Below, in pieces: positions 1-16,349 of a DNA stretch of 46,959 nt. Positions within the stretch are counted from its first letter, which is position 1, and the number at the start of each line of letters is the position of its first letter. The DNA is from a virus (Duplodnaviria > Heunggongvirae > Uroviricota > Caudoviricetes), in the IMG/VR virus record IMGVR_UViG_2681813454_000002, positions 1-46,959 of that record. One strand, written 5' to 3'. The notes beneath the pieces were generated by a model that ran no database searches, was not told the DNA's origin, and worked only from the letters and a program-made list of their open reading frames with translations. Both the position numbers and the translations under genes were made by a program.

Positions 1-1314
1 TTAACTTACTGATTTTAATAAGCCTCTGGTGTCACTTTGGTGACTATGGGGCATCATTGGGACATAATCTGTCAGCTTCTGATTCAGCATTGCGATCTGT
101 TCTGCATTGCTGTCAGTCATCCATGCTCCGTATACATTGAATACCATCTGGGCACTTGCATGGCCCATCTGGCTGGCAATGAAGCTTGGGTTTGCTCCGG
201 CAGATAATGACCAGCACGCATAAGTGTGTCGTGACTGGTATGCCTTTCGATGCCTGATCCCTGCACGCTTAATGGCTGTTTCCCATGAGTCACCTACAGA
301 ATCGACTTTGTAGACAAAACCTACCTGTTCGCTTTTTCTAACCACTTGAGGGTTAAACACGAAAGTACATTCATGGTTCACTGAACGTCCATATTCACGT
401 AGTTGCACCTTGATGTTGTACTGCTTACCCAGTCTTGTCATTTCAGCCTGATTTTTCAGGACACTGATAGCGGGCTGGATAAGGTGCACAACCCTGTTTG
501 TGCTTGCTTCAGTTTTCGGTAGAGTGAACTCACCAAGTTTCGTATAATTGCGCCTGATGGTAATTGTTCCTGCCTTCAGATCGATATCTTCCCAGGCCAG
601 GGAGACCAGTTCACCGTGACGCATTCCTGTGTACACAGCCAATGACCACAGGTTTTTCGTCTGCTGATGTCGGCAAGCATCTATCAGGCGAATAAATTCG
701 TCACGAGTTAGCGGATCTGGCTCTGCCCTGGCTCTTTTAAGAGGCTTAATTCCCTGGAAGGGATTTGCTTCTAAGTAACCGTGATCTGCAGCAAACTGAA
801 ACATTCCAGCGATTGTCGTCATGTAATAATTTACAGTAACGACGCTCCGTCCTTTTGCTGCTGCTTTGTTTTTCGTTGAATTCTGATACCCGGTAAGCAA
901 ATCTTTCCTGATATACAGCAATTCCTCTTTGGTTACCGATGACACCAGTCTACTGCCTCCAATTTTCGGAACCATCGTTCTTGCAACGGATTCATAGCGA
1001 TTGAATGCATTTGCAGAGATTTCCATTCGTTTCAGATCCAGCCACTTTTCTTCAAGTTCCTTCACCGTAATTTCTTTTTTACTTACCCCAAAAGCCTGAA
1101 GGTTGGGGGAGTCAGGGAACTGTGCAGCATAATCAAAGCTTCCTGTGCGGATGGCAAAACATACTGATGTCCGCAGTTCCCCGGCGATCTTCCTGTTCTT
1201 GGCAGTGTCAGGGACACCAAGATTTTCCCTGACACGTTTACCTTTAAAATTAAACCAGATGCGTAATGTGCCGCCGTGGTTTTCGACGCCTGTTGGATAT
1301 TTGACTTTATCCAT
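1..1314 (-). CDS. int: Phage tyrosine integrase (437 aa)
   Basis: Complete ORF with stop at 1-3 on the minus strand; N-terminal arm-binding-like region and C-terminal tyrosine-recombinase-like region; sits next to an excisionase-like gene at the prophage left end. Confidence 0.85.
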   Translation of the reverse strand: MDKVKYPTGVENHGGTLRIWFNFKGKRVRENLGVPDTAKNRKIAGELRTSVCFAIRTGSFDYAAQFPDSPNLQAFGVSKKEITVKELEEKWLDLKRMEISANAFNRYESVARTMVPKIGGSRLVSSVTKEELLYIRKDLLTGYQNSTKNKAAAKGRSVVTVNYYMTTIAGMFQFAADHGYLEANPFQGIKPLKRARAEPDPLTRDEFIRLIDACRHQQTKNLWSLAVYTGMRHGELVSLAWEDIDLKAGTITIRRNYTKLGEFTLPKTEASTNRVVHLIQPAISVLKNQAEMTRLGKQYNIKVQLREYGRSVNHECTFVFNPQVVRKSEQVGFVYKVDSVGDSWETAIKRAGIRHRKAYQSRHTYACWSLSAGANPSFIASQMGHASAQMVFNVYGAWMTDSNAEQIAMLNQKLTDYVPMMPHSHQSDTRGLLKSVS

Positions 1315-1369
1315 CGATACCTCCAGACGCCCAAGAGCGATACGAGCTTACATATTTCATGATATTAAA

Positions 1370-1606
1370 TCACCTGGGTTGTTTGTTTTTCATTGAGGCG
1401 ACCCAGGCATCTATTGCTTTTCTGTTATACATACATTCACTGGAAGGCTTTGGATTACCGTCTGGTGATACGTGAATATACTCTCTTCCAACCATCCAGC
1501 ATTCTTTCCGGGCCCGAAGAATTGTGCCTGGTTTGAGCCCGGTAATTGCGATAAGAACGCTTTCACAAACCCATTCATTGGGAGCCAGTTGAATCACATT
1601 GCCCAT
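1370..1606 (-). CDS. xis: Excisionase-like small DNA-binding protein (78 aa)
   Basis: Small basic ORF immediately upstream of int in the same orientation; RBS TGAGGT before the ATG. Confidence 0.6.
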   Translation of the reverse strand: MGNVIQLAPNEWVCESVLIAITGLKPGTILRARKECWMVGREYIHVSPDGNPKPSSECMYNRKAIDAWVASMKNKQPR

Positions 1607-1614
1607 GTATTACC

Positions 1615-1761
1615 TCACACAACACTCAGCCCACGGCAGTGGCACCACACTTCAAACATTCGCTTCACAACTTCACGACAGTAGAAGCCGTCAACATCTC
1701 GCGTCAGGTCATAGCGATTGCCGTAACGCTGGTGGACCCATCGTTCAAATGCTTTATTCAT
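1615..1761 (-). CDS. Hypothetical small protein (48 aa), not in the ORF track
   Basis: ATG at 1759-1761 preceded by AAGGAAG; translates MNKAFERWVHQRYGNRYDLTRDVDGFYCREVVKRMFEVWCHCRGLSVV; stop just before the xis RBS. Confidence 0.35.
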   Translation of the reverse strand: MNKAFERWVHQRYGNRYDLTRDVDGFYCREVVKRMFEVWCHCRGLSVV

Positions 1762-1764
1762 TCT

Positions 1765-2007
1765 TTACTTCCTTTTTATGGCTCGTAATTTTTTCAGGTG
1801 CTTTTCCTGCTCAGTGTCCGCGAGAATTTTGCGGTACTCCTGGTGGTCAATATGTTCGAACAGGCAGTTTAACTCACCAATGCGTACCCGCCCGGATCGT
1901 CCGTCCATCCGTCGAAAGAACACTGAGTGCTCAGTGATGCGAGTAATCACCACGGGGTATCCGGCTCTGTCCGTGTATATCTGACCGCGTTGAATCAAAG
2001 CGAACAT
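1765..2007 (-). CDS. Hypothetical prophage protein (80 aa)
   Basis: ORF in the leftward early operon, same orientation as its neighbours. Confidence 0.5.
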   Translation of the reverse strand: MFALIQRGQIYTDRAGYPVVITRITEHSVFFRRMDGRSGRVRIGELNCLFEHIDHQEYRKILADTEQEKHLKKLRAIKRK

Positions 2008-2091
2008 GTGGTTATCCCCAGCGGCAAATCGAATACACCATCAGCGTCACCGCCATCGCAATTCCTACCGTTGTTAATGCTTCAGGCCAGG

Positions 2092-2436
2092 TCATCGTAA
2101 AATATCCTCCACGCTTATCAGTCCGTTCCGCTCCAGATAACTCATCGCCTTATCCGGTAATTTGCAGTCTGGCTTCGCTTTCCTCAGTTGCCAGGTTAAC
2201 TGCTTTACCAGCATGGTTAACTCATCGACCAGACGCTGATATCCCACTGGTTTGTATTCATGCAATTTACCGGCTGGCTCTGCTGCCAGCGATACCAGTG
2301 CGATTTCCAGAACAGCAATATCCATCTTATATGTGCGGATGATGTCATGGTCGATTGTACCCGGTATGCACAGTCTCTGTGCTTCAATAGTCTCCTCTGC
2401 GTGAGCTATTAACTGCTCTCTGGTAAAAGTCGTCAT
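2092..2436 (-). CDS. Hypothetical protein (114 aa)
   Basis: ORF whose stop overlaps the start of the upstream gene; shares an LVSL.AEP motif and a 30-bp nucleotide block with the adjacent 61-aa ORF. Confidence 0.55.
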
Positions 2437-2618
2437 GCCGTAGCCCCTTCTTGATATTTTTCAAACCAGAACACAACCGGCTCTGCTTCCAGCGATACCA
2501 GTGCAATTCGTGCCAGTTCTTCCGCTTCTTCTGCTGGCAGTACAACGTTGCTACCCGGTCCGTATGTTTCGCGCCACTGCTTGATTGTCAGCAGTCGCCC
2601 TTTGGTAATAGTGATCAT
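2433..2618 (-). CDS. Hypothetical protein (61 aa), partial paralog of the adjacent 114-aa gene
   Basis: ORF coupled by ATGA-type overlap; nucleotides 2479-2508 match 2275-2304 at 28/30 positions. Confidence 0.45.
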
Positions 2619-3130
2619 GCCGCGTTTCCTTCTTTCTTATTAACAATCACACCGTCATATATTTCATTAAGGTGCCCTCTCAACTCCATGCGCCTTAATG
2701 CAGATAACATGTAATCGCATTCAACCTGCTTATTCCCAGTAAATGGCTTATCGTCAGGATTACCCCAACAGCAATTACCCCTGGGCCATCCATGTACTTT
2801 CCGTACTCTTCCGTTAACAACGTGAAGTAATCCCCAGCCGGGAGGTAAATCCTCAACTGAAATAATTTCCGGCTCACTAATAAAGAATCGCCAGTCGCCC
2901 ATGCCAAGTGAGGGATTTTTACGGAAACGCTTTTTTCTATCTGCCAACAAGTCAGCACGAGAACACTTCGCCTCTATCAGGCATGATGCTGAATTTCTGA
3001 ATCCCATAGCATCTGGCTGTTCTCCGGTACTGGTTACAGCAACAAAGCGGTCATGAAAGCAAACCTTGAACCCGTTGCGCTTAAGGAACTTGTACGCAAT
3101 CTGACAGAGTTCGTGGTGTGTTAACGCCAT
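2615..3130 (-). CDS. Putative PD-(D/E)XK-family nuclease-like protein (171 aa from the MALTHH start)
   Basis: ATG at 3128-3130 with RBS AAGGAGAG; sequence has a D...EAK arrangement (..PDAMGF..CLIEAKCSRADL..) reminiscent of PD-(D/E)XK nucleases; family assignment is tentative. Confidence 0.5.
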   Translation of the reverse strand: MALTHHELCQIAYKFLKRNGFKVCFHDRFVAVTSTGEQPDAMGFRNSASCLIEAKCSRADLLADRKKRFRKNPSLGMGDWRFFISEPEIISVEDLPPGWGLLHVVNGRVRKVHGWPRGNCCWGNPDDKPFTGNKQVECDYMLSALRRMELRGHLNEIYDGVIVNKKEGNAA

Positions 3131-3131
3131 A

Positions 3132-3617
3132 TCACTCTCCTTTGATGCGAATGCCTGTTGCAATGCTGTTTATGATGCTGTCAGTGCATGGGGTAGAAAG
3201 CTGGGCATCTCCAGCAATTTTCATGACCTCAACATCTGCATATCGAATACCGAGGTGTATCAGACCGGCTATGCCTGACTTAAGCCGAGCATTTTCCATA
3301 AATAGAACTTTTGCCCGCTGTTTTTCTGCTTCAAGCTCAACGCGCAGCTTCCCTACCGTTAGCGCAATATCCTCGTTCTCCTGATCGCGGCTTTTGATGT
3401 ATTGCAGGTTTCTTTCCCGTTCATCCAGCAGTGCCAGCACGGTTTCTGGTCCGGTCAGAAATTTGAAGGCGTTGAGCGCATCAATATCCACACCGTAATC
3501 TTTAAGTTCCTGTTCACTTAACAAGTCATCATCAGCTGGCAACATTAACAGGCGTTCCATTGCTGGAATTGCACGTTCCGCCACCTCACGCAGTGCCTGG
3601 TAATTAATTTCGCTCAC
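3132..3617 (-). CDS. Ead/Ea22-like early protein (161 aa)
   Basis: N-terminus MSEINYQALREVAERA and coiled-coil-like middle are typical of lambdoid Ea22-like proteins; GTG start after GGAGG. Confidence 0.6.
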   Translation of the reverse strand: MSEINYQALREVAERAIPAMERLLMLPADDDLLSEQELKDYGVDIDALNAFKFLTGPETVLALLDERERNLQYIKSRDQENEDIALTVGKLRVELEAEKQRAKVLFMENARLKSGIAGLIHLGIRYADVEVMKIAGDAQLSTPCTDSIINSIATGIRIKGE

Positions 3618-4120
3618 TGGTTGCCTCCTTTGCGAAGCTGGGCAGCAAAGTCAACTAACCACTCAGTCATTTCAACCTTCCCTACCAGGTCTGAACCAGG
3701 GTACATACAGCAATCACTCTGCGCCGCTTTGAAATCCTTATACTCATATTCTTGGGCCACCAGATTTTTTGCAGCTTCTATAGCAGCGTCCACCCCCTGC
3801 GCCCGGACTTCAGCCAGGAAAGCATCAGTGGTTGGCGTTTCAGGTATCTGTCTCCTCATCCGTTCTATTGCATGATTGAACCCGAAGTCTTCCGCGAGAG
3901 ATACGTCATCCATATTGTCATTGTCATCCTCAATATCCCGTGATTCTGGAATTGCAGACTTTATTCCCGCATTCTCCGCTGCCAGCGCCGCGCACTTGGC
4001 CTCAAGAGCGGCAACCACTTCCTGATGGTCTTTGTACTTAACGTATGAGCCGGAGATGTCATCACCTTCGGTGTTTAGCCATGCGTCATTGCAATTCACT
4101 GCGTAGGTTCTGATGCTCAT
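3614..4120 (-). CDS. Hypothetical early protein (168 aa, start at MSIRTY)
   Basis: ATG at 4118-4120 overlaps the TGA of the upstream 60-aa ORF (ATGA coupling); acidic middle region. Confidence 0.55.
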   Translation of the reverse strand: MSIRTYAVNCNDAWLNTEGDDISGSYVKYKDHQEVVAALEAKCAALAAENAGIKSAIPESRDIEDDNDNMDDVSLAEDFGFNHAIERMRRQIPETPTTDAFLAEVRAQGVDAAIEAAKNLVAQEYEYKDFKAAQSDCCMYPGSDLVGKVEMTEWLVDFAAQLRKGGNQ

Positions 4121-4299
4121 GTTGATGCTCTCCCGCCCCTGACAGACGCCAGGCCAGTCAATAAAGTATCCGCAATGCCTACCCTCAGACGTGCGCGCAG
4201 GATAAATGCCGTTATGACCCGGCAAATATATGCTACCCATTCATCTTGCGTTGCCTGTTCCGCCGCCTCGCGCAGTGCCTGATAGTCAATCTTGCTCAC
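4117..4299 (-). CDS. Small ORF with an Ea22-like N-terminal module (60 aa)
   Basis: Starts MSKIDYQALREAAEQA with the same RBS and start context as the 161-aa Ea22-like gene; diverges after about 20 codons. Confidence 0.4.
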   Translation of the reverse strand: MSKIDYQALREAAEQATQDEWVAYICRVITAFILRARLRVGIADTLLTGLASVRGGRAST

Positions 4300-4600
4300 T
4301 GGCAGCCTCCTTTGCCGGGATTTCTAACTTTTGAGTGGTTGTATCAAATTCAAACAACTTAACCACGTCATCAAACAGGACATAATCACCATCAGGATCT
4401 TCAGTCATATCTGCGCCACAATCCTGACCGCACGAGTCGCAACCATCCATATCAAGCTCGTATCGCTTCAGGTTTGCGATATTTGATAAATTCAGCGCCA
4501 GTACAGCCAGGTCATAAACCTCTTCGGCAGTGACATCGCTGTTCAGTCCCATTTCATGGCGATATATGATTTTTTCTACTCGTTGTTTTGTGATCGTCAT
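4286..4600 (-). CDS. Hypothetical protein (104 aa from the MTITKQ start)
   Basis: ATG at 4598-4600 with RBS GGAGTGAAGAG; acidic, Cys-containing. Confidence 0.5.
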   Translation of the reverse strand: MTITKQRVEKIIYRHEMGLNSDVTAEEVYDLAVLALNLSNIANLKRYELDMDGCDSCGQDCGADMTEDPDGDYVLFDDVVKLFEFDTTTQKLEIPAKEAASEQD

Positions 4601-4871
4601 TTTTCTCTTCACTCCGATATACAAGGATTACTACACCCCCTCTGCTGATTGCGCGAGCTGGATCCCCTGGTTCCATGCCGTCAATTCCGAAGGCTTCGGA
4701 AAACGCATTCATTGCCTTCTGGCGTTCATCCTGCTTACGGCGTTTATTCCATTTTTTCAGGAACAACAGCGACAGCCACCGTCCGCTGCAGAACACGATG
4801 TAAAAATAACCAAGGAGCGCCAGGCCGACATTCAGGGCCGTTTCTATGGTTAGTTGTGAGTCAGTTGCCAT
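4554..4871 (-). CDS. Hypothetical small membrane protein (105 aa)
   Basis: RBS AGGTAAG before the ATG at 4869-4871; predicted hydrophobic segment LNVGLALLGYFYIVF; 3' end overlaps the next gene in another frame. Confidence 0.4.
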   Translation of the reverse strand: MATDSQLTIETALNVGLALLGYFYIVFCSGRWLSLLFLKKWNKRRKQDERQKAMNAFSEAFGIDGMEPGDPARAISRGGVVILVYRSEEKNDDHKTTSRKNHISP

Positions 4872-5109
4872 TTCTTACCTGTTTAAGTAACTGGTTGAAC
4901 ATAACACTTAGGGGATTGCTGTATCCAAACGGCAGATTGTTTACGCAGTACAGAATCATTTTGTTTTTTTCTCCAGTTCGTACTATTAACCCATTCCACA
5001 ATAACCGTGATAATTCATTACTGATAGAAGTTGCGCTTCTTCCAAGTGCGAGGGATATATCTTCTCTACTGCAATCTGGATTTTCCTGGATATACTCGAT
5101 AACGGTCAT
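4861..5109 (-). CDS. Putative winged-helix DNA-binding protein (82 aa, start at MTVIEY)
   Basis: ATG at 5107-5109 after AAAAGGGA; sequence MTVIEYIQENPDCSREDISLALGRSATSISNELSRLLWNGLI resembles wHTH regulators. Confidence 0.5.
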   Translation of the reverse strand: MTVIEYIQENPDCSREDISLALGRSATSISNELSRLLWNGLIVRTGEKNKMILYCVNNLPFGYSNPLSVMFNQLLKQVRNGN

Positions 5110-5119
5110 GTGGTCCCTT

Positions 5120-5701
5120 TTACTTAATATCTGTTTCGGATTGCATGCCATGAGTATTCATTTCGTTAATAATTTCATCCAGAAGGATTTCAAGCCCTTC
5201 TCGACCCATATCTGAAAGAATGAAACCTTTATCAGGGGAAGTAGTGAGCATTTTCTGATAAAGAAACAGCGCTCTTCCCATTCCTTCAGCTTCGCCGTAT
5301 TTTTGAATTAAATTCCATTCAATATACTGTTGTAAGGCAAATCGAATGGGGCCGGGATATATCGTCATAAACCCATACATCCCGTTATATACCACGGCGT
5401 GTTCAGTTGTTCCGTGTTCATTCAGGATATCAATTGTGCCGTTCTTGTCTTCTTCTTCGTTGATGAATGTCGTCACATACAACCATCGCCACTGAGCAAC
5501 CTTCATCTCAACCGGAAGTTTACCCAGTAATCCTGCTTCGTCGGCTTGCGCCAGACACTGAAGGATACGTAAACCTCGCACATTAGGAGTATCGAATTCT
5601 CCGGCATCCAGACGACGTATGGCGTCGTGATAATCAATCGTCATACTGCCAGTTCGTATACCATTGGCTGTTGCTTCAGCCTGGAATTCATCGTATTGCA
5701 T
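5120..5701 (-). CDS. Hypothetical protein (193 aa), uncharacterised accessory gene
   Basis: Long ORF with RBS GAGGAA before the ATG at 5699-5701; lies in a low-GC island. Confidence 0.6.
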   Translation of the reverse strand: MQYDEFQAEATANGIRTGSMTIDYHDAIRRLDAGEFDTPNVRGLRILQCLAQADEAGLLGKLPVEMKVAQWRWLYVTTFINEEEDKNGTIDILNEHGTTEHAVVYNGMYGFMTIYPGPIRFALQQYIEWNLIQKYGEAEGMGRALFLYQKMLTTSPDKGFILSDMGREGLEILLDEIINEMNTHGMQSETDIK

Positions 5702-5706
5702 GATAT

Positions 5707-5895
5707 TTATTCCTCATCTTCATCTTCATCTGCTGGTGCAATAACGTCATATCCTGCCCTTTCTGCAATAAACAGGAATGTTGAAAGAGTTCCTACAAGT
5801 TCATCGTCATGAACATGGCGAATGAATATTACTTTCCCGTTTTTGATGGTCAGCAATATTCTGGTTTGTTCGTGTTCTGCTGTTTTCTGATGCAT
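5707..5895 (-). CDS. Hypothetical small protein (62 aa) with an acidic C-terminus
   Basis: RBS GGGAGA before the ATG; C-terminal DEDEDEE tail; stop 6 nt before the start of the 193-aa gene. Confidence 0.45.
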   Translation of the reverse strand: MHQKTAEHEQTRILLTIKNGKVIFIRHVHDDELVGTLSTFLFIAERAGYDVIAPADEDEDEE

Positions 5896-6089
5896 TATTA
5901 TCTCCCGTATGCTTTACGCAGAAATAAGCAGGCAATATGCATGTAATTTTCACCGTATTGTGCAATAAGGCAGGCGGTCTTGTGTGATGCCATATTCTTT
6001 ATAAAAGTCACAATAAAGCCTCCTGTGGATTAAGGTTGTAACAATCCCCGGCGATAAAACCGCAATAAACGTTCAGGGCATATTTGTTG

Positions 6090-6455
6090 TTATTGCGCTA
6101 ATTCTTTTTCGGCAGCAGCTTTTGTATACTCACATGCAAAACTCAGAATTTCGCTGCCGAGTGTTTTCGTTTCGTGATTACTGGACATATGTAATACCTG
6201 TGTTGCATGCAATAAATGATAAACATTTACCGCAAATGAATCAGGCTCCAGACAAATGCCTTCGTAATTATCTTGCTGTGAGGTTGTTTCTGTCATTGCT
6301 CCTGAAGTGCATGCGAGCCTGTTTTTGACAATTCTCTTTTCTCTAATCACTATATCGGCAACATCTATTGCCTTTACAACCTCCGGGAGAAGTTCCGGGT
6401 TTGTATAATCAAAGTCATCAACATGGAGAACAGTTATGTTTTCGAACTTTTTCAT
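6090..6455 (-). CDS. Hypothetical protein (121 aa), uncharacterised accessory gene
   Basis: RBS GAGGAAG before the ATG at 6453-6455. Confidence 0.55.
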   Translation of the reverse strand: MKKFENITVLHVDDFDYTNPELLPEVVKAIDVADIVIREKRIVKNRLACTSGAMTETTSQQDNYEGICLEPDSFAVNVYHLLHATQVLHMSSNHETKTLGSEILSFACEYTKAAAEKELAQ

Positions 6456-6696
6456 GGCTTCCTCAGCTGACTTATATGTTCTGCTATATAGCGAGTCTCA
6501 GAAGTGTTTTCATATTGAGACTGTTTCCGCAATGATTGATAAAAATGTTCGCATGTACCTTGAAGGGCGAAGCGGCGATTATGTCACTATTGGTATTGGT
6601 TCTTCCGCAGAAGAGCTTCGCGAGATAAGGGGCAAACTTGTTGAGATGCGTCATGGTGTTGCTGCTCCTCACTTTTTGGTTGCTCCGGAGGAGTAA
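6436..6696 (+). CDS. Candidate plus-strand ORF (86 aa) embedded in the leftward operon
   Basis: GGAG 7 nt upstream of the ATG at 6436; overlaps the 5' end of the 121-aa gene and the 3' end of the HTH gene; may be spurious. Confidence 0.2.
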   Translation: MFSNFFMASSADLYVLLYSESQKCFHIETVSAMIDKNVRMYLEGRSGDYVTIGIGSSAEELREIRGKLVEMRHGVAAPHFLVAPEE

Positions 6697-7087
6697 CCTC
6701 ACCAGTTAACAGCCACATCGGATCGCAGCCAAGAATATTTGCCAGTGGGATAAGCATACTGATAGTTGGTTCATACTCTCCGCTCTCCCACTGGATGATA
6801 ATTTCTTCATCGAGATCGAGCAGCCTGGCGAGTTCGGCGGTTGTTAAGCCGCAGGCTTCGCGTTGGGTGCGAAGACGGTTGTTGATTGCAGAATTTTTGT
6901 TCTGTAAAAGCATTGCTGACGATAGCTTTCTGGATATGCTATTTGTCATATCCCATGCCAGTCCTGCGCATGACTCTATATCGCTAGAGAGCGTAGCATC
7001 AGGTGTTGCTTTTGCTATTAGTGTAATGAGGCTGCCGAGGTTTTTCAGTTCTTCGAGACAGTCAAGAGTTGTAGCTTTATTGATCAT
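6587..7087 (-). CDS. HTH (XRE-family) DNA-binding protein (166 aa), first gene of the leftward early operon
   Basis: Central motif GLTTAELARLLDLDEEIIIQWESGEYEPTISMLIPLANILGCDPMWLLTGE is a Cro/C1-type HTH; RBS TGAGGT before the ATG at 7085-7087; preceded by operator-like repeats. Confidence 0.6.
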   Translation of the reverse strand: MINKATTLDCLEELKNLGSLITLIAKATPDATLSSDIESCAGLAWDMTNSISRKLSSAMLLQNKNSAINNRLRTQREACGLTTAELARLLDLDEEIIIQWESGEYEPTISMLIPLANILGCDPMWLLTGEVTPPEQPKSEEQQHHDASQQVCPLSREALLRKNQYQ

Positions 7088-7116
7088 GAGATGATACCTC
7101 AGTTACGAACTTTGTT

Positions 7117-7170
7117 TTATGGTAACTAAGGTATCAAGGTGTGGCAAGTGATTTTTGATACTTTGGTTTC
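7117..7170. promoter_or_regulatory. OL-like operator/promoter region (TTGATAC repeats)
   Basis: Two TTGATAC(C/T)-type motifs in opposite orientation (7130-7137 minus strand, 7155-7166 plus strand) between the cI stop and the first leftward gene. Confidence 0.4.
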
Positions 7171-7190
7171 TTTTTGTGTTTTGTGTCTGG

Positions 7191-7847
7191 TCAGAAAATA
7201 TCCCACCTGGCATCAACCACAACACCTACTATTTCGCAATCATTGTCCATTTCTATGATTGGATATTGTGGATTAAGGGGCTTTAGAAACGCCTTTCCCA
7301 TGTCAGAAATATATTTTTTGAATGTTGCTTCATTGGTCGATTTTTTTCTGGCGATGACGTAACACCCTGAAAAAACTTCTTTATCTGGGTTGACAAGGAT
7401 CGACATTCCTTCAGGAAATGTTATTCCTACGGGCGAAGTCATTGAGTCTCCGTGCACTTCCAGCCAGAACCCCCTCTCACCAGCGTATTTTACAGAATGC
7501 CTCCAATTATCCTGATCATACATGTTGTAGTCATCACCAGAAGTTGCGAATAATCCTGCCTGAACCCAGTTAATTACAGGGTAAGAGTGTGCTGTGTCTC
7601 TCTGTGGGCAGCTCTTAACATTATTTTCCCAATGCTTATCTTTTTCATCTCCGTTCTGAAGCCACTGCGGTGAACACCGCAGTGCAGCTGCAACTTTAAA
7701 AAGGGTGTCACCGTTGAAACTTTTTGTAAGGCCTTGCTCGGCTTTACTGATTGCAACTCTGGTGATCCCAGCTTTTTTAGCCAACGCATCTTGTGTTAAC
7801 CCAGCTTTTTGCCGTGCGTTGATGAGACGTTCACCTAAAGACTTCAT
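7191..7847 (-). CDS. cI: CI-like prophage repressor (HTH plus S24 LexA-like autocleavage domain, 218 aa)
   Basis: N-terminal HTH (LTQDALAKKAGITRVAISKAEQG) and C-terminal S24-peptidase-like domain; ATG at 7845-7847 with RBS GAGGAG; divergent from the rightward genes. Confidence 0.85.
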   Translation of the reverse strand: MKSLGERLINARQKAGLTQDALAKKAGITRVAISKAEQGLTKSFNGDTLFKVAAALRCSPQWLQNGDEKDKHWENNVKSCPQRDTAHSYPVINWVQAGLFATSGDDYNMYDQDNWRHSVKYAGERGFWLEVHGDSMTSPVGITFPEGMSILVNPDKEVFSGCYVIARKKSTNEATFKKYISDMGKAFLKPLNPQYPIIEMDNDCEIVGVVVDARWDIF

Positions 7848-7861
7848 TTTTCTTCTCCTCT

Positions 7862-7955
7862 CATGGCTGTTGATACTAAAGTAACAGAATTTCTTGATAC
7901 TTTGGATTCCCGTGGTTAACATCGTTGGATAACAAAGTATCTGGTGTGAGACTAA
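7862..7955. promoter_or_regulatory. OR-like operator/promoter region (PRM/PR) with repeated TTGATAC half-sites
   Basis: TTGATACTAAAGTA at 7870, TTGATACTTTGG at 7894 and inverted GATAACAAAGTATC at 7928-7941, in the divergent intergenic region between cI and the rightward genes. Confidence 0.5.
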
Positions 7956-7958
7956 AGA

Positions 7959-8186
7959 ATGACCCTTTATGAAATATTAAAAATTCAATTTAAAACCAAT
8001 GCCGCTATTGGTCGCAGGTTCCCAAAGAAAGGAAGGCCTCGTGGCAGTCAAGGTGTTGGAAAGTGGAAAACGCGAGGTGTTCCGGAGGATGTTGCCATTC
8101 TTTGTCATCTGGATCCGAGCATTCCATATACACACCCAAGTCTAGCGAATACAGAAGATGACAAGCCCACAGGAGACCAACAATGA
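7959..8186 (+). CDS. Hypothetical ORF in the Cro position (75 aa), doubtful
   Basis: Only ORF between OR and the Rha gene; basic and Pro/Gly-rich, no HTH recognisable; weak RBS. Confidence 0.2.
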   Translation: MTLYEILKIQFKTNAAIGRRFPKKGRPRGSQGVGKWKTRGVPEDVAILCHLDPSIPYTHPSLANTEDDKPTGDQQ

Positions 8187-8890
8187 ACACCGCAATTTTT
8201 AACGGCAAAGCATCCATGACCAGCGTTGAGATCGCAGAGCTGGTGGGTAAACGTCATGACAATGTGAAACGCACTATTGAAACATTAGCCAAAGGTGGCG
8301 TTGTCCGGTCTCCTCAAATTGAGGTTTCCGAAAGAATCAATAACTTAGGTTTTAAAGTTCAATATGAGCATTACCTGTTTGAAGGAGAACAAGGTAAGCG
8401 CGACAGCATCATTGTCGTCGCACAGCTCTGTCCTGAATTCACTGCTCGCCTGGTAGATCGCTGGCGCGAACTGGAAGAACAGATCCGTAAGCCAATGAGC
8501 GAAATCGAAATGGTTGCCGCGATGGCTCTTGAAGCCGTTCGCCAACAGAAACGGATCACTCAGGTGGAAGAAAAAGTCAGCCACGTTGCTGAAACAGTCG
8601 AGCAAATTAAAAAGGGCACTATTCGTGAGGGCTATGCCGGATATCGCCAACTGAAAGCAAAAACCGGTTTGTCAGATGATAAATGCCGCAATCTGGTGAA
8701 CGCCTATCAGATTCCTACAGACACCCATGAGTTCATGACGCCGGACGGATTGTTGTCACGTCGCGCAATTGTTGCTGTGGAACCGTTTATGGCTGCTTTT
8801 TATCGGGTTATGGAGGAAGCAGAACCGCGAGGGACTCGCTGGTATCACCCGAAAATGGGGTTATTTCAGGTTATTGGTTGGCAGCGGTGA
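8183..8890 (+). CDS. Rha-family phage regulatory protein / antirepressor-like (235 aa)
   Basis: N-terminus ..MTSVEIAELVGKRHDNVKRTIETL.. is typical of the Rha family; RBS GGAGA before the ATG. Confidence 0.75.
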   Translation: MNTAIFNGKASMTSVEIAELVGKRHDNVKRTIETLAKGGVVRSPQIEVSERINNLGFKVQYEHYLFEGEQGKRDSIIVVAQLCPEFTARLVDRWRELEEQIRKPMSEIEMVAAMALEAVRQQKRITQVEEKVSHVAETVEQIKKGTIREGYAGYRQLKAKTGLSDDKCRNLVNAYQIPTDTHEFMTPDGLLSRRAIVAVEPFMAAFYRVMEEAEPRGTRWYHPKMGLFQVIGWQR

Positions 8891-8913
8891 AAAAAAGCCG
8901 GGAGTAACCCGGC
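8890..8913 (-). terminator. Hairpin plus T-run, intrinsic terminator oriented for leftward transcription
   Basis: A7 then GCCGGG-AGTAA-CCCGGC on the plus strand; on the minus strand this is a stem-loop followed by U7. Confidence 0.35.
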
Positions 8914-9020
8914 TCACTCAACATCAATAACGGGGAGCTGTTTCGCATAAAACGGCTCCGAAACATCCAAGAACAGTTCTAAAGATATCAGCAGCTATAT
9001 GATCATTTCAAGACCAAATA

Positions 9021-9049
9021 TTGATTCTGCAATTTCGGGACGTTACACT
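9021..9049 (+). promoter_or_regulatory. Candidate sigma70 promoter (TTGATT-17 bp-TACACT)
   Basis: -35 at 9021-9026 and -10 at 9044-9049 with 17-bp spacing, in a noncoding region of about 400 bp. Confidence 0.3.
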
Positions 9050-9112
9050 GTCTCTGCACCTTATAAAGCGGGTGCCGGGGGTCGCAGCCCGGAATTGTCA
9101 ACGGCGATATAT

Positions 9113-9133
9113 GACGCGCCAGCGTCTTTTTTA
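9113..9133 (+). terminator. Intrinsic terminator (GACGC-GCCA-GCGTC plus T6)
   Basis: Perfect 5-bp GC-rich stem followed by TTTTTT, about 65 nt downstream of the candidate promoter. Confidence 0.45.
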
Positions 9134-9298
9134 TCGTCCGCGCTCACGCACGCCAGAATTATGGTGGGCTGGGCAGGGGAGCCGAAAGGCTCGCCGGTTT
9201 CCGTTGACGCCGGTACTGCGAACCCTGTTCAGTCTGCCACCAGTGAGTTTCGCAGCTCCGGTGGTGGAAGTTTTCCACAGTCAACGGAGGCTGCCATC

Positions 9299-9850
9299 AT
9301 GGCTACGATCCCAACCCTCACTCAACCTGAAATTGCCATCGTTGATGGTCAGGCTGTTACTTCATCCCTGGCTGTTGCCAACTTCTTCTCCAAGCGTCAT
9401 GACGATGTACTGAAAAAGATCCGCACGCTTGAATGCTCCGCATCATTCACTGCCCGCAATTTTTCGGTGAGTGATTACACCGATTGCACAGGCCGCAAAC
9501 TACCTTGCTATCAAATCACCCGTGATGGCTTCGCGTTCCTTGCTATGGGCTTTACTGGCAAACGTGCAGCCCGGTTCAAAGAGGCATACATCAACGCCTT
9601 TAACCTGATGGAGAAGAGTTTATCAGGTGCCGATGCGTCTGATATGTCAGCTGTCGCACGAAACGCCAGAGGCGTATACCTGCATTTGCGTGAAATCCAT
9701 CAAATCTGGACAAGCCAGCTTTATCCAATGCTTAAGGCCGTTGAATCTCCGCTGGCTAGCAAACTGTACGACCGTGTTGGTGATGCTGTTTTTGGCGCTG
9801 CACTTGTTGATTCCAGGCTGAATGGTTCTGACAAGGAGGTTCGCCCATGA
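9299..9850 (+). CDS. Second Rha-family protein (183 aa from the MATIPTL start)
   Basis: ATG at 9299 after ACGGAGG; ..AVANFFSKRHDDVLKKIRTL.. Rha-like N-terminal domain; the upstream in-frame extension from 8999 is low-complexity and probably untranslated. Confidence 0.7.
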   Translation: MATIPTLTQPEIAIVDGQAVTSSLAVANFFSKRHDDVLKKIRTLECSASFTARNFSVSDYTDCTGRKLPCYQITRDGFAFLAMGFTGKRAARFKEAYINAFNLMEKSLSGADASDMSAVARNARGVYLHLREIHQIWTSQLYPMLKAVESPLASKLYDRVGDAVFGAALVDSRLNGSDKEVRP

Positions 9851-10041
9851 TTAGTTACGAAATCATCATCTCCACTACGGAATACAGAAACGATGTATCA
9901 GTTCGCACGGATGTATCTGTCTGGCACCGTCGCTATAAATCCAGAAAAACAGCGGAACTGAAAGCGGCAGAGATGTGTGAAACCATCTCAATGAAAGGTA
10001 GCCCGGTTAAATACGTAACTACGGTGGAGGTGCGTCCATGA
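9847..10041 (+). CDS. Hypothetical protein (64 aa)
   Basis: RBS GGAGG before the ATG; ATGA overlap with the upstream gene. Confidence 0.5.
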   Translation: MISYEIIISTTEYRNDVSVRTDVSVWHRRYKSRKTAELKAAEMCETISMKGSPVKYVTTVEVRP

Positions 10042-10262
10042 TCCGCCACATCGTTAATTCCCTGTATCACCGATACAACCGTTGCCCCCGTGTGGGGCAG
10101 TGGTTCGCCACCAGCAACGGTCACGTTCTGCGGGTTTGCCTAGTCAACGCTGAAAGCCAGAAAGTCGTGTGCGAACTACAGGGGCGTAGCTACACCATCA
10201 GTTACCCTCTGGCGGTATTTCTGTCTGGAAAAATGTTTAAGCGTCTGGGAGGTGTGGCGTGA
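10038..10262 (+). CDS. Hypothetical protein (74 aa)
   Basis: RBS GGAGGTG; ATGA overlap coupling. Confidence 0.5.
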   Translation: MIRHIVNSLYHRYNRCPRVGQWFATSNGHVLRVCLVNAESQKVVCELQGRSYTISYPLAVFLSGKMFKRLGGVA

Positions 10263-10558
10263 ACTGTTTTCAGTTTGTGTGCGGATGTGCTTTCGATAAC
10301 CCGATTCAGCGCCTAATTATGTTGCGTGTTTTGATGTCGGGTTCTTCAGACGGTGAAGGCGAGAGAGTTATTGATCATCAGGTGCTTGCTGATTTCTGCT
10401 GTTGTTCTAAGCAAGCGATATTCAGGGAAACCCTGGCACTGGAAAGAGCTGGTTATCTTCATATCCGAAAAATTGCAACGCTTACTATTGATGCAAAAGC
10501 CAGACTACAACCTGCGCGTGGCTACACAATTCTCATGCCGCGGAAGGAGGTTGTATGA
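10259..10558 (+). CDS. Hypothetical protein (99 aa), possible DNA-binding protein
   Basis: GTG start after GGAGG; coupled to the downstream O-like gene by ATGA overlap. Confidence 0.45.
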   Translation: MNCFQFVCGCAFDNPIQRLIMLRVLMSGSSDGEGERVIDHQVLADFCCCSKQAIFRETLALERAGYLHIRKIATLTIDAKARLQPARGYTILMPRKEVV

Positions 10559-11541
10559 GCCGTTACGCCCCCACACCGGAAGTTATGGCTATTGGTCAAA
10601 TTAATATTTCCGGCAATGTTACACCTGCGAACTGGTGGAAATATATTCGACTACCCAGTGGGCGTCCGGATGCGACGGCTATCGCTCTGCTTTCAGAGAT
10701 CGTTTACTGGTACCGCCCGACAGAGGTCAGGGATGAGCACACCGGAGCGTTGCTGGGATATCGCAAGCGTTTTCAGGGCGACAAACTGCAAAGAAGCTAC
10801 CAGGCGTTTGCTGAGCAGTTTGGTTTCGGGAAAAGGGAAACCGCAGATGCGCTGAAGCGTCTGCGCGATGCAGGGTTTATTACTCTGGATTTACGCACGG
10901 TGGAAATGCTCGATGGGGTGAAATGCAGCAATATTTTGTTTGTCGGGATCAACCCACAGGCAATTGCGGTCATCACCACACCTTCTTCTGTTTCGCCAGA
11001 AAGTAACAGCAATAATGCAATCAGCGATACAGCTATTACGTTAAAACGGAACACCCCCCGACGTCATAACGGAACAGGGGATACGCCGAATGTTGATACA
11101 AATACAGAGATTACTACAGAGATTACAACGGAGACTAAAAACACTATTGATGCATCCGCTGACGCGTCTGCGCGTTCTGCCCGACAGGAATATTCACCGG
11201 AATTTGAACAGGCCTGGCAGGAATATCCCAAACGTGCTGGTGGCAATTCCAAGTCAGCGGCCTTCAAAGCCTGGAAAGCCCGTATCAGGGAGGGAATAAA
11301 ACCGGAGACCATGCTTGATGGCGTGAAGCGGTATGCCGCCTGGGTACGTGCTACAGGAAATACCGGCACACAGTTCGTGAAGCAGGCTGCGACGTTCTTT
11401 GGACCCGATCGTCACTTCGAAGATTACTGGCAACAGCCAGCCGCTCACGGAGGTGGGCGACAGCGACAGGTCGATGTCCTGGCTGGCCTGGGAGCCATGT
11501 CTGACAAATTCGGTAAATCCAGTAACAAATTGACATTCTGA
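10555..11541 (+). CDS. Replication initiation protein (O-like, with a conserved phage C-terminal domain)
   Basis: C-terminal ..EFEQAWQEYPKRAGGNSKSAAFKAWKARIREG.. block is typical of phage replication initiators; sits upstream of a DnaC-like gene. Confidence 0.7.
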   Translation: MSRYAPTPEVMAIGQINISGNVTPANWWKYIRLPSGRPDATAIALLSEIVYWYRPTEVRDEHTGALLGYRKRFQGDKLQRSYQAFAEQFGFGKRETADALKRLRDAGFITLDLRTVEMLDGVKCSNILFVGINPQAIAVITTPSSVSPESNSNNAISDTAITLKRNTPRRHNGTGDTPNVDTNTEITTEITTETKNTIDASADASARSARQEYSPEFEQAWQEYPKRAGGNSKSAAFKAWKARIREGIKPETMLDGVKRYAAWVRATGNTGTQFVKQAATFFGPDRHFEDYWQQPAAHGGGRQRQVDVLAGLGAMSDKFGKSSNKLTF

Positions 11542-11542
11542 G

Positions 11543-12451
11543 GTGACAGCGATGATGACGATTGACCAACGTGAGAAACAAACAAGACTACAGGCGCGAA
11601 TGGATGAGTTACGGGCAGAAATGGATGAGTTACGGGCAGAGATTGCATTTGCTCAGAAGGGCGAAAAGCCATGGCCTTATCGTTCCTGCCTGATGCGTGA
11701 AGGTCGCGGATATTGCGAAAAACACGGTAAATATCGTACGCATATACTGGTGTGGATCGATCGTAATGGCGAGGACAGAGAAAAAATTTCATGCTGCCCT
11801 GACTGCTTGATCGCTGAGGCCAGTGATTTGACCATGGAACTGTCGTCCCTCAAGGCGGAAGAACTGACTGATAACGCCGGAATTGCTCTGCGTTTTCGGG
11901 ACTGCGAGTTTGATAATTATCTGGAGGTTAATCCTGACGCAGCCAGAAATCTTGCGGCCTGTCGCCGCTATGCGGAGAACTGGCCAGATATGCTGGAGAA
12001 CGGTACCAGTCTTGTTATGACCGGCAGTTGCGGTACCGGGAAAAATCATCTGGCGGTATCAATGGCAAAACACATCATCCGTAACTATCTGGCCAGTGTG
12101 GAGATCACCGACGTGATGCGCCTTACCCGGGCTGTGAAAAACTGCTGGCGGAATGACAGTGAAAAAACAGCGGATGACGTCATTGAGCATTATGCGTCAC
12201 TGGATTTGCTGATTGTCGACGAAGTCGGCGTTCAGTTTGGCAGTGCGGCTGAAATGGCCATTTTGCAGGAAATTATCAATGCCCGGTATGAGGGTATTTT
12301 GCCAACTATCTTGATCAGCAATCTTTCACCGGAAGAATTGTGGGCGTTCATCAGTCCCCGGATTGCCGACAGGATCACCGATGGCGGGCGCAACTGGTTG
12401 TCGTTTAACTGGCCCAGCTACCGTTCTCGTATCGGAGGTGTTGCCGCATGA
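11543..12451 (+). CDS. DnaC-like helicase loader (AAA+ ATPase)
   Basis: Walker A TGSCGTGKNHLA and Walker B LLIVDEVG; the real start may be the ATG at 11552 (RBS GAGGTGA). Confidence 0.8.
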   Translation: MTAMMTIDQREKQTRLQARMDELRAEMDELRAEIAFAQKGEKPWPYRSCLMREGRGYCEKHGKYRTHILVWIDRNGEDREKISCCPDCLIAEASDLTMELSSLKAEELTDNAGIALRFRDCEFDNYLEVNPDAARNLAACRRYAENWPDMLENGTSLVMTGSCGTGKNHLAVSMAKHIIRNYLASVEITDVMRLTRAVKNCWRNDSEKTADDVIEHYASLDLLIVDEVGVQFGSAAEMAILQEIINARYEGILPTILISNLSPEELWAFISPRIADRITDGGRNWLSFNWPSYRSRIGGVAA

Positions 12452-15156: not shown

Positions 15157-15531
15157 ATGCTCATAGATTTGGTTTTACCTTACCCGCCGACGGTGAACAC
15201 TTACTGGCGACGCCGTGGCAGCACATATTTTATCTCGGAGGAGGGAAAGCGTTATCGCCGGGCTGTGGCGCTTATTGTTCGCCAGCAGCGGCTGAAATTA
15301 AGCCTGTCCGGAAGGCTGGCGATAAAGGTGATTGCAGAGCCACCGGATAAGCGTCGTCGCGACCTGGACAATATCCTGAAAGCACCGCTGGATGCGCTGA
15401 CGCATGCGGGAGTGTTAATGGACGATGAGCAGTTTGATGAAATCAATATCGTTCGTGGTCAGCCAGTATCTGGTGGACGTATGGGGGTGAAGATTTACCC
15501 CATAATGCATGAAGAGCAGGTCAAAAAATGA
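15157..15531 (+). CDS. rusA: Holliday junction resolvase RusA
   Basis: Characteristic RusA sequence (..PPTVNTYWRRRG.., ..RRRDLDNILKAPLDAL..); RBS AAGAGG. Confidence 0.85.
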   Translation: MLIDLVLPYPPTVNTYWRRRGSTYFISEEGKRYRRAVALIVRQQRLKLSLSGRLAIKVIAEPPDKRRRDLDNILKAPLDALTHAGVLMDDEQFDEINIVRGQPVSGGRMGVKIYPIMHEEQVKK

Positions 15532-16349
15532 AACTGGAAGATTTACCGAAATACTACTCCCCAAAATCCCCTGGCCTGACCGATGCATCGGCCTCAACGT
15601 CAAAAGATGCGCTGAGTATCACTGATGTGATGGCCGCGCAGGGCATGACACAGAATCGGGCTGAGATGGGGTTTTCTGCGTTCCTGGGGAAAATGGGCAT
15701 CAGTATGAATGACAGGGCGCGGGCAACAGAATTACTGGCAGATTATGCACTCAGTCGGTGCGATCGTGTGGCGGCGTTGAGAAAACTTCCGGCAGAAATA
15801 AAACCGGTAGTGATGCGCATTATGGCTTCGTATGCGTTTGAAGATTATGCCCGTAGCGCGGCGAGCAAAAAACAGTGCCCTTGCTGTCACGGAAAAAAAT
15901 TTATTGAAAGCGAGGTTTTTACAAACAAGATCCAGTATCCGGATGGTAAGCCACCAGTGTGGGCAAAGTGCACAAAAGGCGTGTATCCGTCTTACTGGGA
16001 AGAATGGAAAAAAGTCAGGGAGGTGGTAAAAGTTGCCTGTCCGGAGTGTGGCGGAAAGGGTGAGGTTTCCACCGCCTGTAAGGATTGCCGTGGGCGTGGT
16101 GTCGCCATTCATCGTGAAGAGTCGGTAAAACGTGGTATGCCTGTTATCAGAGATTGCCAGCGTTGTGGTGGTCGTGGCTGTGAAAGGCTGCCATCAACGG
16201 AGGCATTTAATGCCATATGCAAAGTGACGAGTGCTATCACGCTTGATACGTGGAAAAAATCAGTGAAACGCTTTTACGATACGTTGGTGGTTCGGTTTGA
16301 CATTGAAGAGGCATGGGCGGAGCGGCAGTTAAAGAGGGTAACGCGATAG
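15528..16349 (+). CDS. Late-gene antiterminator (Q-like) with CxxCxGxG zinc-finger repeats
   Basis: Last gene before a promoter-plus-terminator (PR'/tR'-like) unit; four Cys-pair motifs (CPCCHGKK, CPECGGKG, CKDCRGRG, CQRCGGRG). Confidence 0.6.
   Translation: MKLEDLPKYYSPKSPGLTDASASTSKDALSITDVMAAQGMTQNRAEMGFSAFLGKMGISMNDRARATELLADYALSRCDRVAALRKLPAEIKPVVMRIMASYAFEDYARSAASKKQCPCCHGKKFIESEVFTNKIQYPDGKPPVWAKCTKGVYPSYWEEWKKVREVVKVACPECGGKGEVSTACKDCRGRGVAIHREESVKRGMPVIRDCQRCGGRGCERLPSTEAFNAICKVTSAITLDTWKKSVKRFYDTLVVRFDIEEAWAERQLKRVTR

Follow-up and report, generated by a model that had tools for sequence, protein, structure and literature searches.

The early-left operon of an N-less lambdoid prophage: a possible regulatory pair, an embedded opposite-strand gene and a conserved early module

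The viral record IMGVR_UViG_2681813454_000002 (46,959 nucleotides, Caudoviricetes; the whole stretch is referred to here as the window) contains, at positions 4860-7100, a low-GC run of small, mostly leftward genes next to the repressor gene cI. The analysis shows this region to be the promoter-proximal half of the early-left (pL) operon of a lambdoid prophage which carries Q but not N and belongs to the lineage of phage phiP27 and the prophages at the yecE site. As such it is of an already known kind, an early-left operon of hypothetical genes previously sequenced and catalogued in PHROGs. The original prediction had described it as an accessory island, more AT-rich than the structural module and situated downstream of the leftward early promoter, whose products could be assigned to no family. 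The compositional difference is real: GC content is 42.3% at 4860-7100, whereas the window as a whole has 52.2% and its structural half (23000-46959) has 55.4%, and only 1.6% of equal-sized segments are as low. The trough extends past 7100, through cI, to around position 8000.

The leftward early promoter does lie upstream of these genes, as had been predicted, in a region at 7092-7170 on the minus strand. Three operator-like repeats (7092-7106, 7122-7137 and 7155-7168) share the motif TTGATAC(T/C)(T/A)(T/A)(A/G)G, of which three further copies are found at 7870-7941 in the intergenic region between cI and cro. Judged by these motifs, the presence of copies at both places is a classical OL/OR layout. 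The putative leftward pL is sigma-70-like, with -35 hexamer TTGCCA (7147-7142), a 17-nucleotide spacer and -10 hexamer TACCAT (7124-7119). The cI gene (7191-7847) encodes an S24 peptidase domain and a helix-turn-helix (HTH) according to Pfam. Given a LexA-like CI and this OL/pL arrangement, pL would be repressed through the three OL operators and would fire on induction; transcription would then run leftward from the first gene, HTH166, to the DUF4752 gene and on to xis and int. Two of the operator copies (7092-7106 and 7122-7136) are inverted with respect to each other and form a 15-bp inverted repeat with a 15-nucleotide spacer. As RNA, the segment 7092-7136 is predicted to fold with -20 kcal/mol (z = -5.1), burying the Shine-Dalgarno sequence of the first pL gene; the 5' arm of this hairpin lies upstream of the likely transcription start if the pL assignment is right.

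From pL, the minus strand encodes in order a 166-residue regulator (HTH166), proteins of 121, 37, 62 and 193 residues, an 82-residue winged-helix protein (wHTH82) and a 105-residue DUF4752 protein. Packing is tight, with neighbouring genes abutting or overlapping and Shine-Dalgarno sequences located within preceding genes. Rfam finds no RNA family within the region, and no significant RNA structure is predicted for the 78 nucleotides that separate the 121- and 37-residue genes (z = -0.3). More distally follow a 112-residue open reading frame (ORF), Ea22-like genes, DUF4222, xis and int. The run of 121-, 62- (with its acidic tail), 193-, 82- and 105-residue proteins that had been predicted is thus present in full on the minus strand, and the five ORFs are real, but the 37-residue gene and an 86-residue gene on the opposite strand had been missed and HTH166 had gone unmentioned. 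Likewise, the products do belong mostly to families without an assigned function, as the lack of assignments had implied, but every one matches a PHROG and one matches a Pfam family, DUF4752. The RefSeq/PGAP annotation of an identical prophage (NZ_CP145634) lacks the wHTH82, 37-residue and plus-strand 86-residue genes and shortens the 121-residue gene to its last 68 codons. Further along the operon, two Ea22-like ORFs are seen at 3132-4240 and 2615-3163; in the identical prophage PGAP flags both an Ea22-like gene and an ORF next to it as frameshifted or partial. It seems that the operon is decaying towards its distal end, or that this part is misassembled.

The identical prophage is that of Escherichia coli S1-JOR-02-A, which matches the first 12 kb of the window at 100% identity and in which the integrase gene adjoins a DUF72 gene beside yecN and cmoA. 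With positions 4500-7200 as query, the ECOR13 phage PhiR49_2 is 99.9% identical in DNA across 4500-6875 (88% of the query), the Shiga toxin (Stx) 2e phage phiP27 is 84.7% identical over 70%, and many Stx1 and Stx2 phages are 92-93% identical over about one third to one half. Of 5426 complete E. coli genomes, 379 (~7%) contain the DNA of the region in whole or in part, always on the chromosome, and 132 of these 379 carry at least 80% of it. On the other side of cI the right arm encodes cro, a pair of Rha/Ant-like genes and replication genes (O-like, DnaC-like and DnaB-like), followed by a RusA-like resolvase of the right operon (15157-15531), a Q-like antiterminator (15528-16349), a DNA methyltransferase, lysis genes, terminase and the major head protein. 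N was not found: the first pL gene encodes an acidic 166-residue HTH_3 protein, not a small arginine-rich N-like one, and an Rfam scan of positions 1-12000 found no RNA relevant to N-type antitermination. With a Q-like gene present and no N, this is therefore a lambdoid prophage with Q but without N.

The order cI, HTH regulator, 121-residue (or 66-residue) protein, 37-, 62- and 193-residue proteins is kept in prophages whose proteins are 45-65% identical. Because gene order holds at identities as low as these, the region reads as a conserved operon core rather than the variable accessory island originally proposed, and only the segment after the 193-residue gene is swapped between phages. In more distant phages of Escherichia and Klebsiella, too, the 37-, 62-like and 193-residue genes come in this order. 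In the swapped segment, wHTH82 and DUF4752 are present in the window and in Stx1 phages, whereas phiP27 and the relatives here called L019 and L020 have a gene annotated Band_7 or 'lipoprotein'. wHTH82 is absent from phiP27, ASU11, L019 and L020, all of which retain the 62- and 193-residue genes.

HTH166 (6587..7087, minus strand), the first pL gene, encodes an Xre-type regulator of the phiP27 L10 family, acidic at an isoelectric point (pI) of 4.7. An N-terminal domain (residues 1-60), which we call type A, precedes an HTH_3 domain at residues 72-126 (Pfam, 3.7e-11). The protein matches PHROG 4739 (7e-98) and PHROG 4836, 'CII-like regulator' (1.4e-40), as well as the NCBIfam DicA-like model at 4e-13, which is below that model's cut-off. 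Its HTH core is nearly identical, at the DNA level too, in five phages of different immunity whose regulators differ in their N- and C-terminal parts, and substitutions in the core number 6/5/27 at first, second and third codon positions. The type A domain is found in the window, phiP27, Stx1_14040, L018 and L020, where it accompanies the same cI (94-98% identity). A second N-terminal domain, type B, is found in PhiR49_2, Stx2_14040, ASU11 and L019, and these carry other cI types. No relation between the two domains is detectable with hhalign.

The tail of HTH166 (residues ~131-166) is antisense to the 86-residue gene (6436..6696, plus strand), which has a GGAG Shine-Dalgarno sequence 7 nucleotides before its ATG at 6436 and whose product belongs to PHROG 6104 (1.4e-49), a family of function not known. 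It shares 110 nucleotides with the regulator ORF at that ORF's 3' end, and it lies head-to-head with the 121-residue gene, the 5' ends of the two overlapping by 20 nucleotides. Third codon positions of the 86-residue frame are second positions of the antisense regulator frame, and it is at second positions that the HTH166 tail is substituted. This bias towards the 86-residue frame argues both that the last ~36 codons of the HTH166 ORF are unconstrained read-through and that the 86-residue gene is real. In ASU11 the overlap with the regulator gene is confined to the last 11 nucleotides of this gene, which is intact with the same stop; its product is 76% identical, with substitutions at 6/3/18 by codon position. 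The ORF is also intact in 64 of 66 IMG/VR loci (variable sites 20/14/38). From such comparisons of sequences the gene is judged to be a genuine coding gene under purifying selection. The window, PhiR49_2, ASU11, L018 and L019 carry it, phiP27 has it truncated and L020 lacks it; in L020 the regulator stop overlaps the start of the 121-residue gene. Being present, absent or truncated among otherwise collinear relatives, it therefore behaves as a moron. The protein has no match in Pfam, PADLOC or the PDB, the best PADLOC entry being Cas11a at E 0.03.

A candidate rightward promoter for this gene lies inside the 121-residue gene at 6325..6353 on the plus strand, with a perfect -35 TTGACA (6325-6330), a 17-nucleotide spacer and -10 CACTAT (6348-6353). 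Both hexamers are invariant in 8 sequences in which the spacer and nearby synonymous sites vary. The site falls below the criteria of a consensus promoter scan and was not listed by it, and no terminator was found downstream of 6696. Such a promoter would drive the 86-residue gene antisense to the pL transcripts. The 86-residue gene would be the only one of the region expressible while pL is repressed, and its transcript would be antisense to the 3' end of the regulator gene.

The 121-residue protein (6090..6455, minus strand; phiP27 L08, PHROG 5451) is predicted to consist of an alpha/beta N-module (residues 9-45) that a disordered linker joins to a helical hairpin at the C-terminus (residues 69-120). 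AlphaFold2 models hairpin residues 74-120 with predicted local distance difference test (pLDDT) scores of 80-88. Homologues remain full-length down to 45% identity with both halves conserved. The possibility that its N-half is non-coding, as implied by the 68-residue PGAP call, was rejected because diverged homologues retain all 121 residues. In Stx phages the hairpin occurs alone, as a 66-residue protein encoded immediately after the regulator gene. The C-module proves to be homologous to the type B domains found at the N-termini of the regulators of PhiR49_2, Stx2_14040, ASU11 and L019: hhalign gives a probability of 98.4% (E 8.8e-15, 42% identity over 48 columns), and reciprocal hmmsearch comparisons agree (E 1e-7 to 2e-11). 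BLASTP finds no similarity between the 121-residue protein and HTH166.

This homology suggests, by analogy, a decoy like that of SinI and SinR. As PMC3163267 describes, SinI attaches to SinR by way of residues that both proteins conserve, and SinR then no longer binds DNA. HTH166 and the 121-residue protein look regulatory, and they would form a regulatory pair in which HTH166 is the DNA binder and the 121-residue protein lacks a DNA-binding domain. The free hairpin would pair with a hairpin-bearing regulator and switch it off or retune it, as SinI does SinR. Since the resident regulator has an N-domain of another type, the hairpin of this phage could have a different target altogether, or could act on the regulator of a heteroimmune relative.

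Downstream lie three further genes that recur together. The 37-residue basic protein (5898..6011, minus strand) starts with GTG behind an AGGAGG Shine-Dalgarno sequence, and the stop region of its gene overlaps the start of the 62-residue gene. It is annotated in PhiR49_2 and Stx1_14040, is 70-89% identical in phiP27, ASU11 and Stx phages and 51% identical in phage CharmingMan, and its gene shows substitutions of 3/1/7 by codon position. The 62-residue protein (5707..5895, minus strand) is acidic (pI 4.7), with the C-terminus ADEDEDEE; phiP27 L07 is similar to it. It matches PHROG 340 (2e-22) and, more weakly, the C-terminal parts of two families annotated 'anti-repressor', PHROG 4792 (1.2e-6) and PHROG 2379 (1e-3). 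The protein thus appears to resemble, weakly, the C-terminal domain of some Ant-like antirepressor families, here standing alone.

The 193-residue protein (5120..5701, minus strand; phiP27 L06, PHROG 1515) is likewise acidic (pI 4.6), and its gene differs from that of phiP27 by 30/25/79 substitutions at the three codon positions. A search of 1.84 billion proteins yields 102 cluster representatives of the family at E <= 1e-3; almost all are stand-alone proteins of 190-220 residues, and the family has pI values of 4.4-5.6. Conserved residues include G34, D37, R72, W73, N87-G88, Y105, R120 and E128. Most members end in G(M/I/L)P..P..H; the window copy is without this tail, ending GMQSETDIK. The copies of Stx phages end GMPEGQ, and the divergent end lies just upstream of the start of the wHTH82 gene (5120-5150). 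The predicted fold is confident, of mixed alpha/beta type, and has no structural analogue in the PDB or BFVD. Pfam scans of 30 family members gave only scattered chance matches, two long proteins matching the profile (973 and 2741 residues) contain no informative domains, and comparison of the 193-, 121-, 62-, 86- and 82-residue proteins with PDB chains, as single sequences and as profiles, produced nothing below E 0.04. The family may therefore be described as an orphan with a confidently predicted new fold. The idea that it corresponds to orf199 of P4 was dropped, a tblastn search of the phage collection with a satellite member having missed P4.

Temperate phages of Escherichia, Klebsiella and Aeromonas carry family members in their early-left operons, and others occur in small integrative elements encoding int, AlpA, AntA/ORF6N, DUF4222, the 193-family gene and a primase-helicase. 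These primase-carrying elements (L006, L012 and L013/L014, on metagenome and genome contigs) resemble satellites. In two distinct ones, L012 and L013/L014, the primase gene directly follows the 193-family gene; in L006 the 193-family gene lies three genes ahead of it. The L012 protein has 336 residues, being extended by a C-terminal domain of no assigned kind. DUF4222, the 62-like domain and the 193 family are shared between the satellite-like elements and the prophage of the window. CharmingMan, KPP5665-2 and the satellite L013 encode a domain like the 62-residue protein two genes ahead of their 193-family gene, and in CharmingMan a homologue of the 37-residue protein is found upstream as well. 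The three genes would constitute a conserved early module, in which the 62- and 193-residue proteins are acidic and bear no DNA-binding signature. Most likely these two would act soon after lytic growth begins, by binding and blocking a protein of the host or of the phage, whether for host take-over or in a Gam-like or counter-defence role.

The swapped segment after the 193-residue gene begins with wHTH82 (4861..5109, minus strand), a winged-helix, MarR-like protein which the ORF list extends to 96 residues from an upstream ATG; Stx1 phages have the same protein, annotated as a MarR regulator, with the same start methionine. The match to PHROG 1687, 'MarR family' (1.3e-24), covers only the C-terminal half of the profile. 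Pfam MarR_2 (9.5e-5; 22.9 bits, cut-off 27) and HTH_24 (19.8 bits, cut-off 21.9) both fall short, and there is a weak match to PHROG 142, 'Ren-like exclusion protein' (5e-5). The 105-residue protein (4554..4871, minus strand) matches Pfam DUF4752 over positions 2-84 of the 84-position profile (7.2e-37; 125.8 bits, cut-off 27) and PHROG 667 (3e-40). Its single hydrophobic helix (residues 12-30) and the basic stretch after it make a small protein of the inner membrane probable.

Elsewhere in the prophage, two RNAs exceed their Rfam gathering scores on the plus strand: the Hfq-binding RNA isrK (9056-9132, 58.7 bits) and the C4 antisense RNA (9157-9244, 81.4 bits). They lie inside or upstream of the Rha/Ant-like gene at 8999-9850, and the pair looks like the c4-ant antirepressor control module of P1/P7 immI type, placed in the right operon, so that a second layer of immunity control would exist beside CI. 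Downstream of the Q-like gene, the DNA methyltransferase gene (16922-17806, plus strand; PHROG 6025, 8e-107) is the sole recognisable anti-restriction candidate of the prophage. A second sharp GC trough (39%) at 22001-23000, between the lysis genes and the small terminase region, contains no listed ORF of at least 90 residues.

How are these genes best explained together? Our preferred reading combines a regulatory pair, an antisense moron and an early protein-binding module, with functions inferred throughout, and we rate its chances at slightly less than even. Several points weigh against it. The 121-residue module has no detectable similarity to the type A domain of the resident regulator (hhalign probability 0.2%), so a SinI-like pair acting in cis is not established for this phage. 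The model of the whole 121-residue protein has moderate confidence (pLDDT 69.8 overall). Neither this protein nor HTH166 matches SinI or SinR families in Pfam at E <= 0.1, so the likeness to SinR/SinI is architectural only. The hexamers of the internal promoter also encode the conserved IV and VKN of the 121-residue protein, so that this promoter is only a candidate; it and pL alike rest on consensus matches. The acidity of the 62- and 193-residue proteins is weak evidence of a binding role and a partner is nowhere indicated, while conserved synteny could reflect linkage and recent recombination instead of joint function. Two bolder readings seem rather improbable to us: one would make the HTH-less hairpins of 121 or 66 residues decoys against the pL regulators of heteroimmune prophages of the same lineage, and the other would make the 37/62/193 genes a new host take-over or counter-defence module of new fold. 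Decoys of this sort would explain the presence of a type B module in phages with a type A regulator.

The original prediction had favoured a defence or anti-defence function, and lambda does carry ral, sieB, kil and gam at the equivalent position in its pL operon. That the 62- and 193-residue proteins, and possibly the 121-residue one, are early inhibitors of host immunity (RecBCD, restriction or abortive infection) expressed from pL, with wHTH82 as an Aca-like autoregulator, we consider possible but unlikely. It fits the position, matching that of lambda ral, gam and kil, the acidic products of a phage without Gam or Abc homologue, the 193-residue fold without analogue, the occurrence of the 193 family in satellites and in phages of other genera, as with many counter-defence genes, and the small HTH gene directly after the cassette. 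However, no known anti-restriction or anti-defence family is matched in PHROGs or Pfam, the genes are syntenic and conserved among close relatives, unlike typical counter-defence cargo, and wHTH82 is missing from phiP27, ASU11, L019 and L020 despite their 62- and 193-residue genes. Specifically, none of the proteins of the region matches Ral, Gam, Abc2, Ocr/ArdA-like or Acr families in Pfam or PHROG, a comparison that included no dedicated anti-defence profile library; the nearest is the weak match of wHTH82 to the Ren-like PHROG 142. The proposed hotspot stands in so far as uncharacterised genes do fill the pL operon; no convincing PHROG family for anti-restriction or exclusion is among them. 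Nor was there any sign of confident homology to housekeeping phage functions, which the prediction had named as a refutation, and the literature on the accessions, DUF4752, PhiR49 and lambdoid anti-defence yielded nothing about these genes.

Also as predicted, no exo, bet or gam relative, nor any of erf or recT, is found among all ORFs between int and pL by Pfam and PHROG scans. That operon, empty of Red, Erf and RecT genes, leaves room for the 193-residue protein, perhaps with its 62- and 37-residue neighbours, to serve phage replication or recombination in the slot of lambda exo, bet and gam. The satellite 193-family genes, immediately upstream of the primase-helicase gene and in the same direction in L012 and L013/14, and three genes upstream in L006, are consistent with this, and the P.P..H tail of most family members could be a docking peptide; we nevertheless find it quite doubtful. 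Least probable of all is a defence or superinfection exclusion expressed in the lysogen, which would come down essentially to the 86-residue gene and possibly the DUF4752 protein. The former has its own orientation, possibly its own promoter, a moron-like distribution and purifying selection, and the latter is a small membrane protein, as some exclusion proteins are. Yet the 86-residue protein is small, soluble and without recognisable domain, PADLOC gives no convincing match (the Cas11a hit above being the best), no promoter upstream of its gene reaches consensus criteria, and the remaining genes depend on CI-repressed pL. Since pL genes are silent in the lysogen, prophage-encoded defence is unlikely save for this one gene. 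The prediction of a defence function fared no better in PADLOC-DB v2, where HTH166's HTH domain matched RmrA, capH and HTH_VI and the winged helix matched C-terminal parts of CARF, CasR and Csa3, all generically, and the 193-, 121- and 62-residue and DUF4752 proteins matched nothing. Altogether, anti-defence, host take-over by the 62- and 193-residue proteins and a replication-linked role are possible but unsupported.

What the region offers is a set of new leads: a protein mimicking a regulator, an embedded gene on the opposite strand and an orphan fold common to phages and satellites. Its DNA is carried by Stx1- and Stx2-converting prophages among others, yet its genes are labelled hypothetical where they are annotated in the first place. 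Knowing the role of the first pL genes of these N-less lambdoid phages would bear on the control of induction and hence on Shiga-toxin release. The arrangement of a regulator and a free hairpin is a concrete hypothesis that can be tested cheaply; hairpin decoys, if true, would be a new form of inter-prophage interference through regulator mimicry. Should the regulator and hairpin or the 193 family turn out to serve as a weapon, in counter-defence or between phages, the relevance of the family would be wide; otherwise, this is a typical, poorly understood early operon.

Among known systems, the closest are phiP27 and the Stx1 and Stx2 prophages at the yecE site, which share cI, L10 (the HTH regulator), L08 (121 residues), the 37-residue gene, L07 (62-like) and L06 (193 residues); all counterparts in phiP27, Stx phages and PhiR49_2 are annotated as hypothetical. 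The region is a mosaic: phiP27 differs in having a 138-residue regulator followed by a different insert carrying L09, and the Stx phages in having regulators of 216-242 residues with a second HTH domain and, in place of the 121-residue protein, just the 66-residue hairpin; wHTH82 and DUF4752 are common to the window and Stx1 phages but not phiP27. The pL operon of lambda also lies directly to the left of cI and of an OL/pL with three operators, and it has the same closely packed small early genes leading leftward to xis and int and a GC content below that of the structural genes. It differs in its genes: lambda N, ral, sieB, cIII, kil, gam, bet and exo have no homologue here, the first gene encodes an Xre-type HTH protein where lambda has the antiterminator N, and there is no Red/Gam module. 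SinR/SinI, and SlrR/SlrA, of Bacillus subtilis resemble the type B regulators and hairpin proteins of the sibling phages in combining a regulator, which has an Xre/434-type HTH and a helical oligomerisation domain, with a small adjacent gene encoding a free copy of the helical domain. In the phages, however, the helical domain is N-terminal to the HTH, where in SinR it is C-terminal, and in the window the free module is of type B while the resident regulator is of type A. Finally, the 86-residue gene recalls lambda OOP/cII and the rex and sieB morons as a unit which opposes the early operon, overlaps the 3' end of a regulator and is variably present among close relatives, the difference being that the opposing unit here, under a putative promoter, encodes a conserved 86-residue protein.

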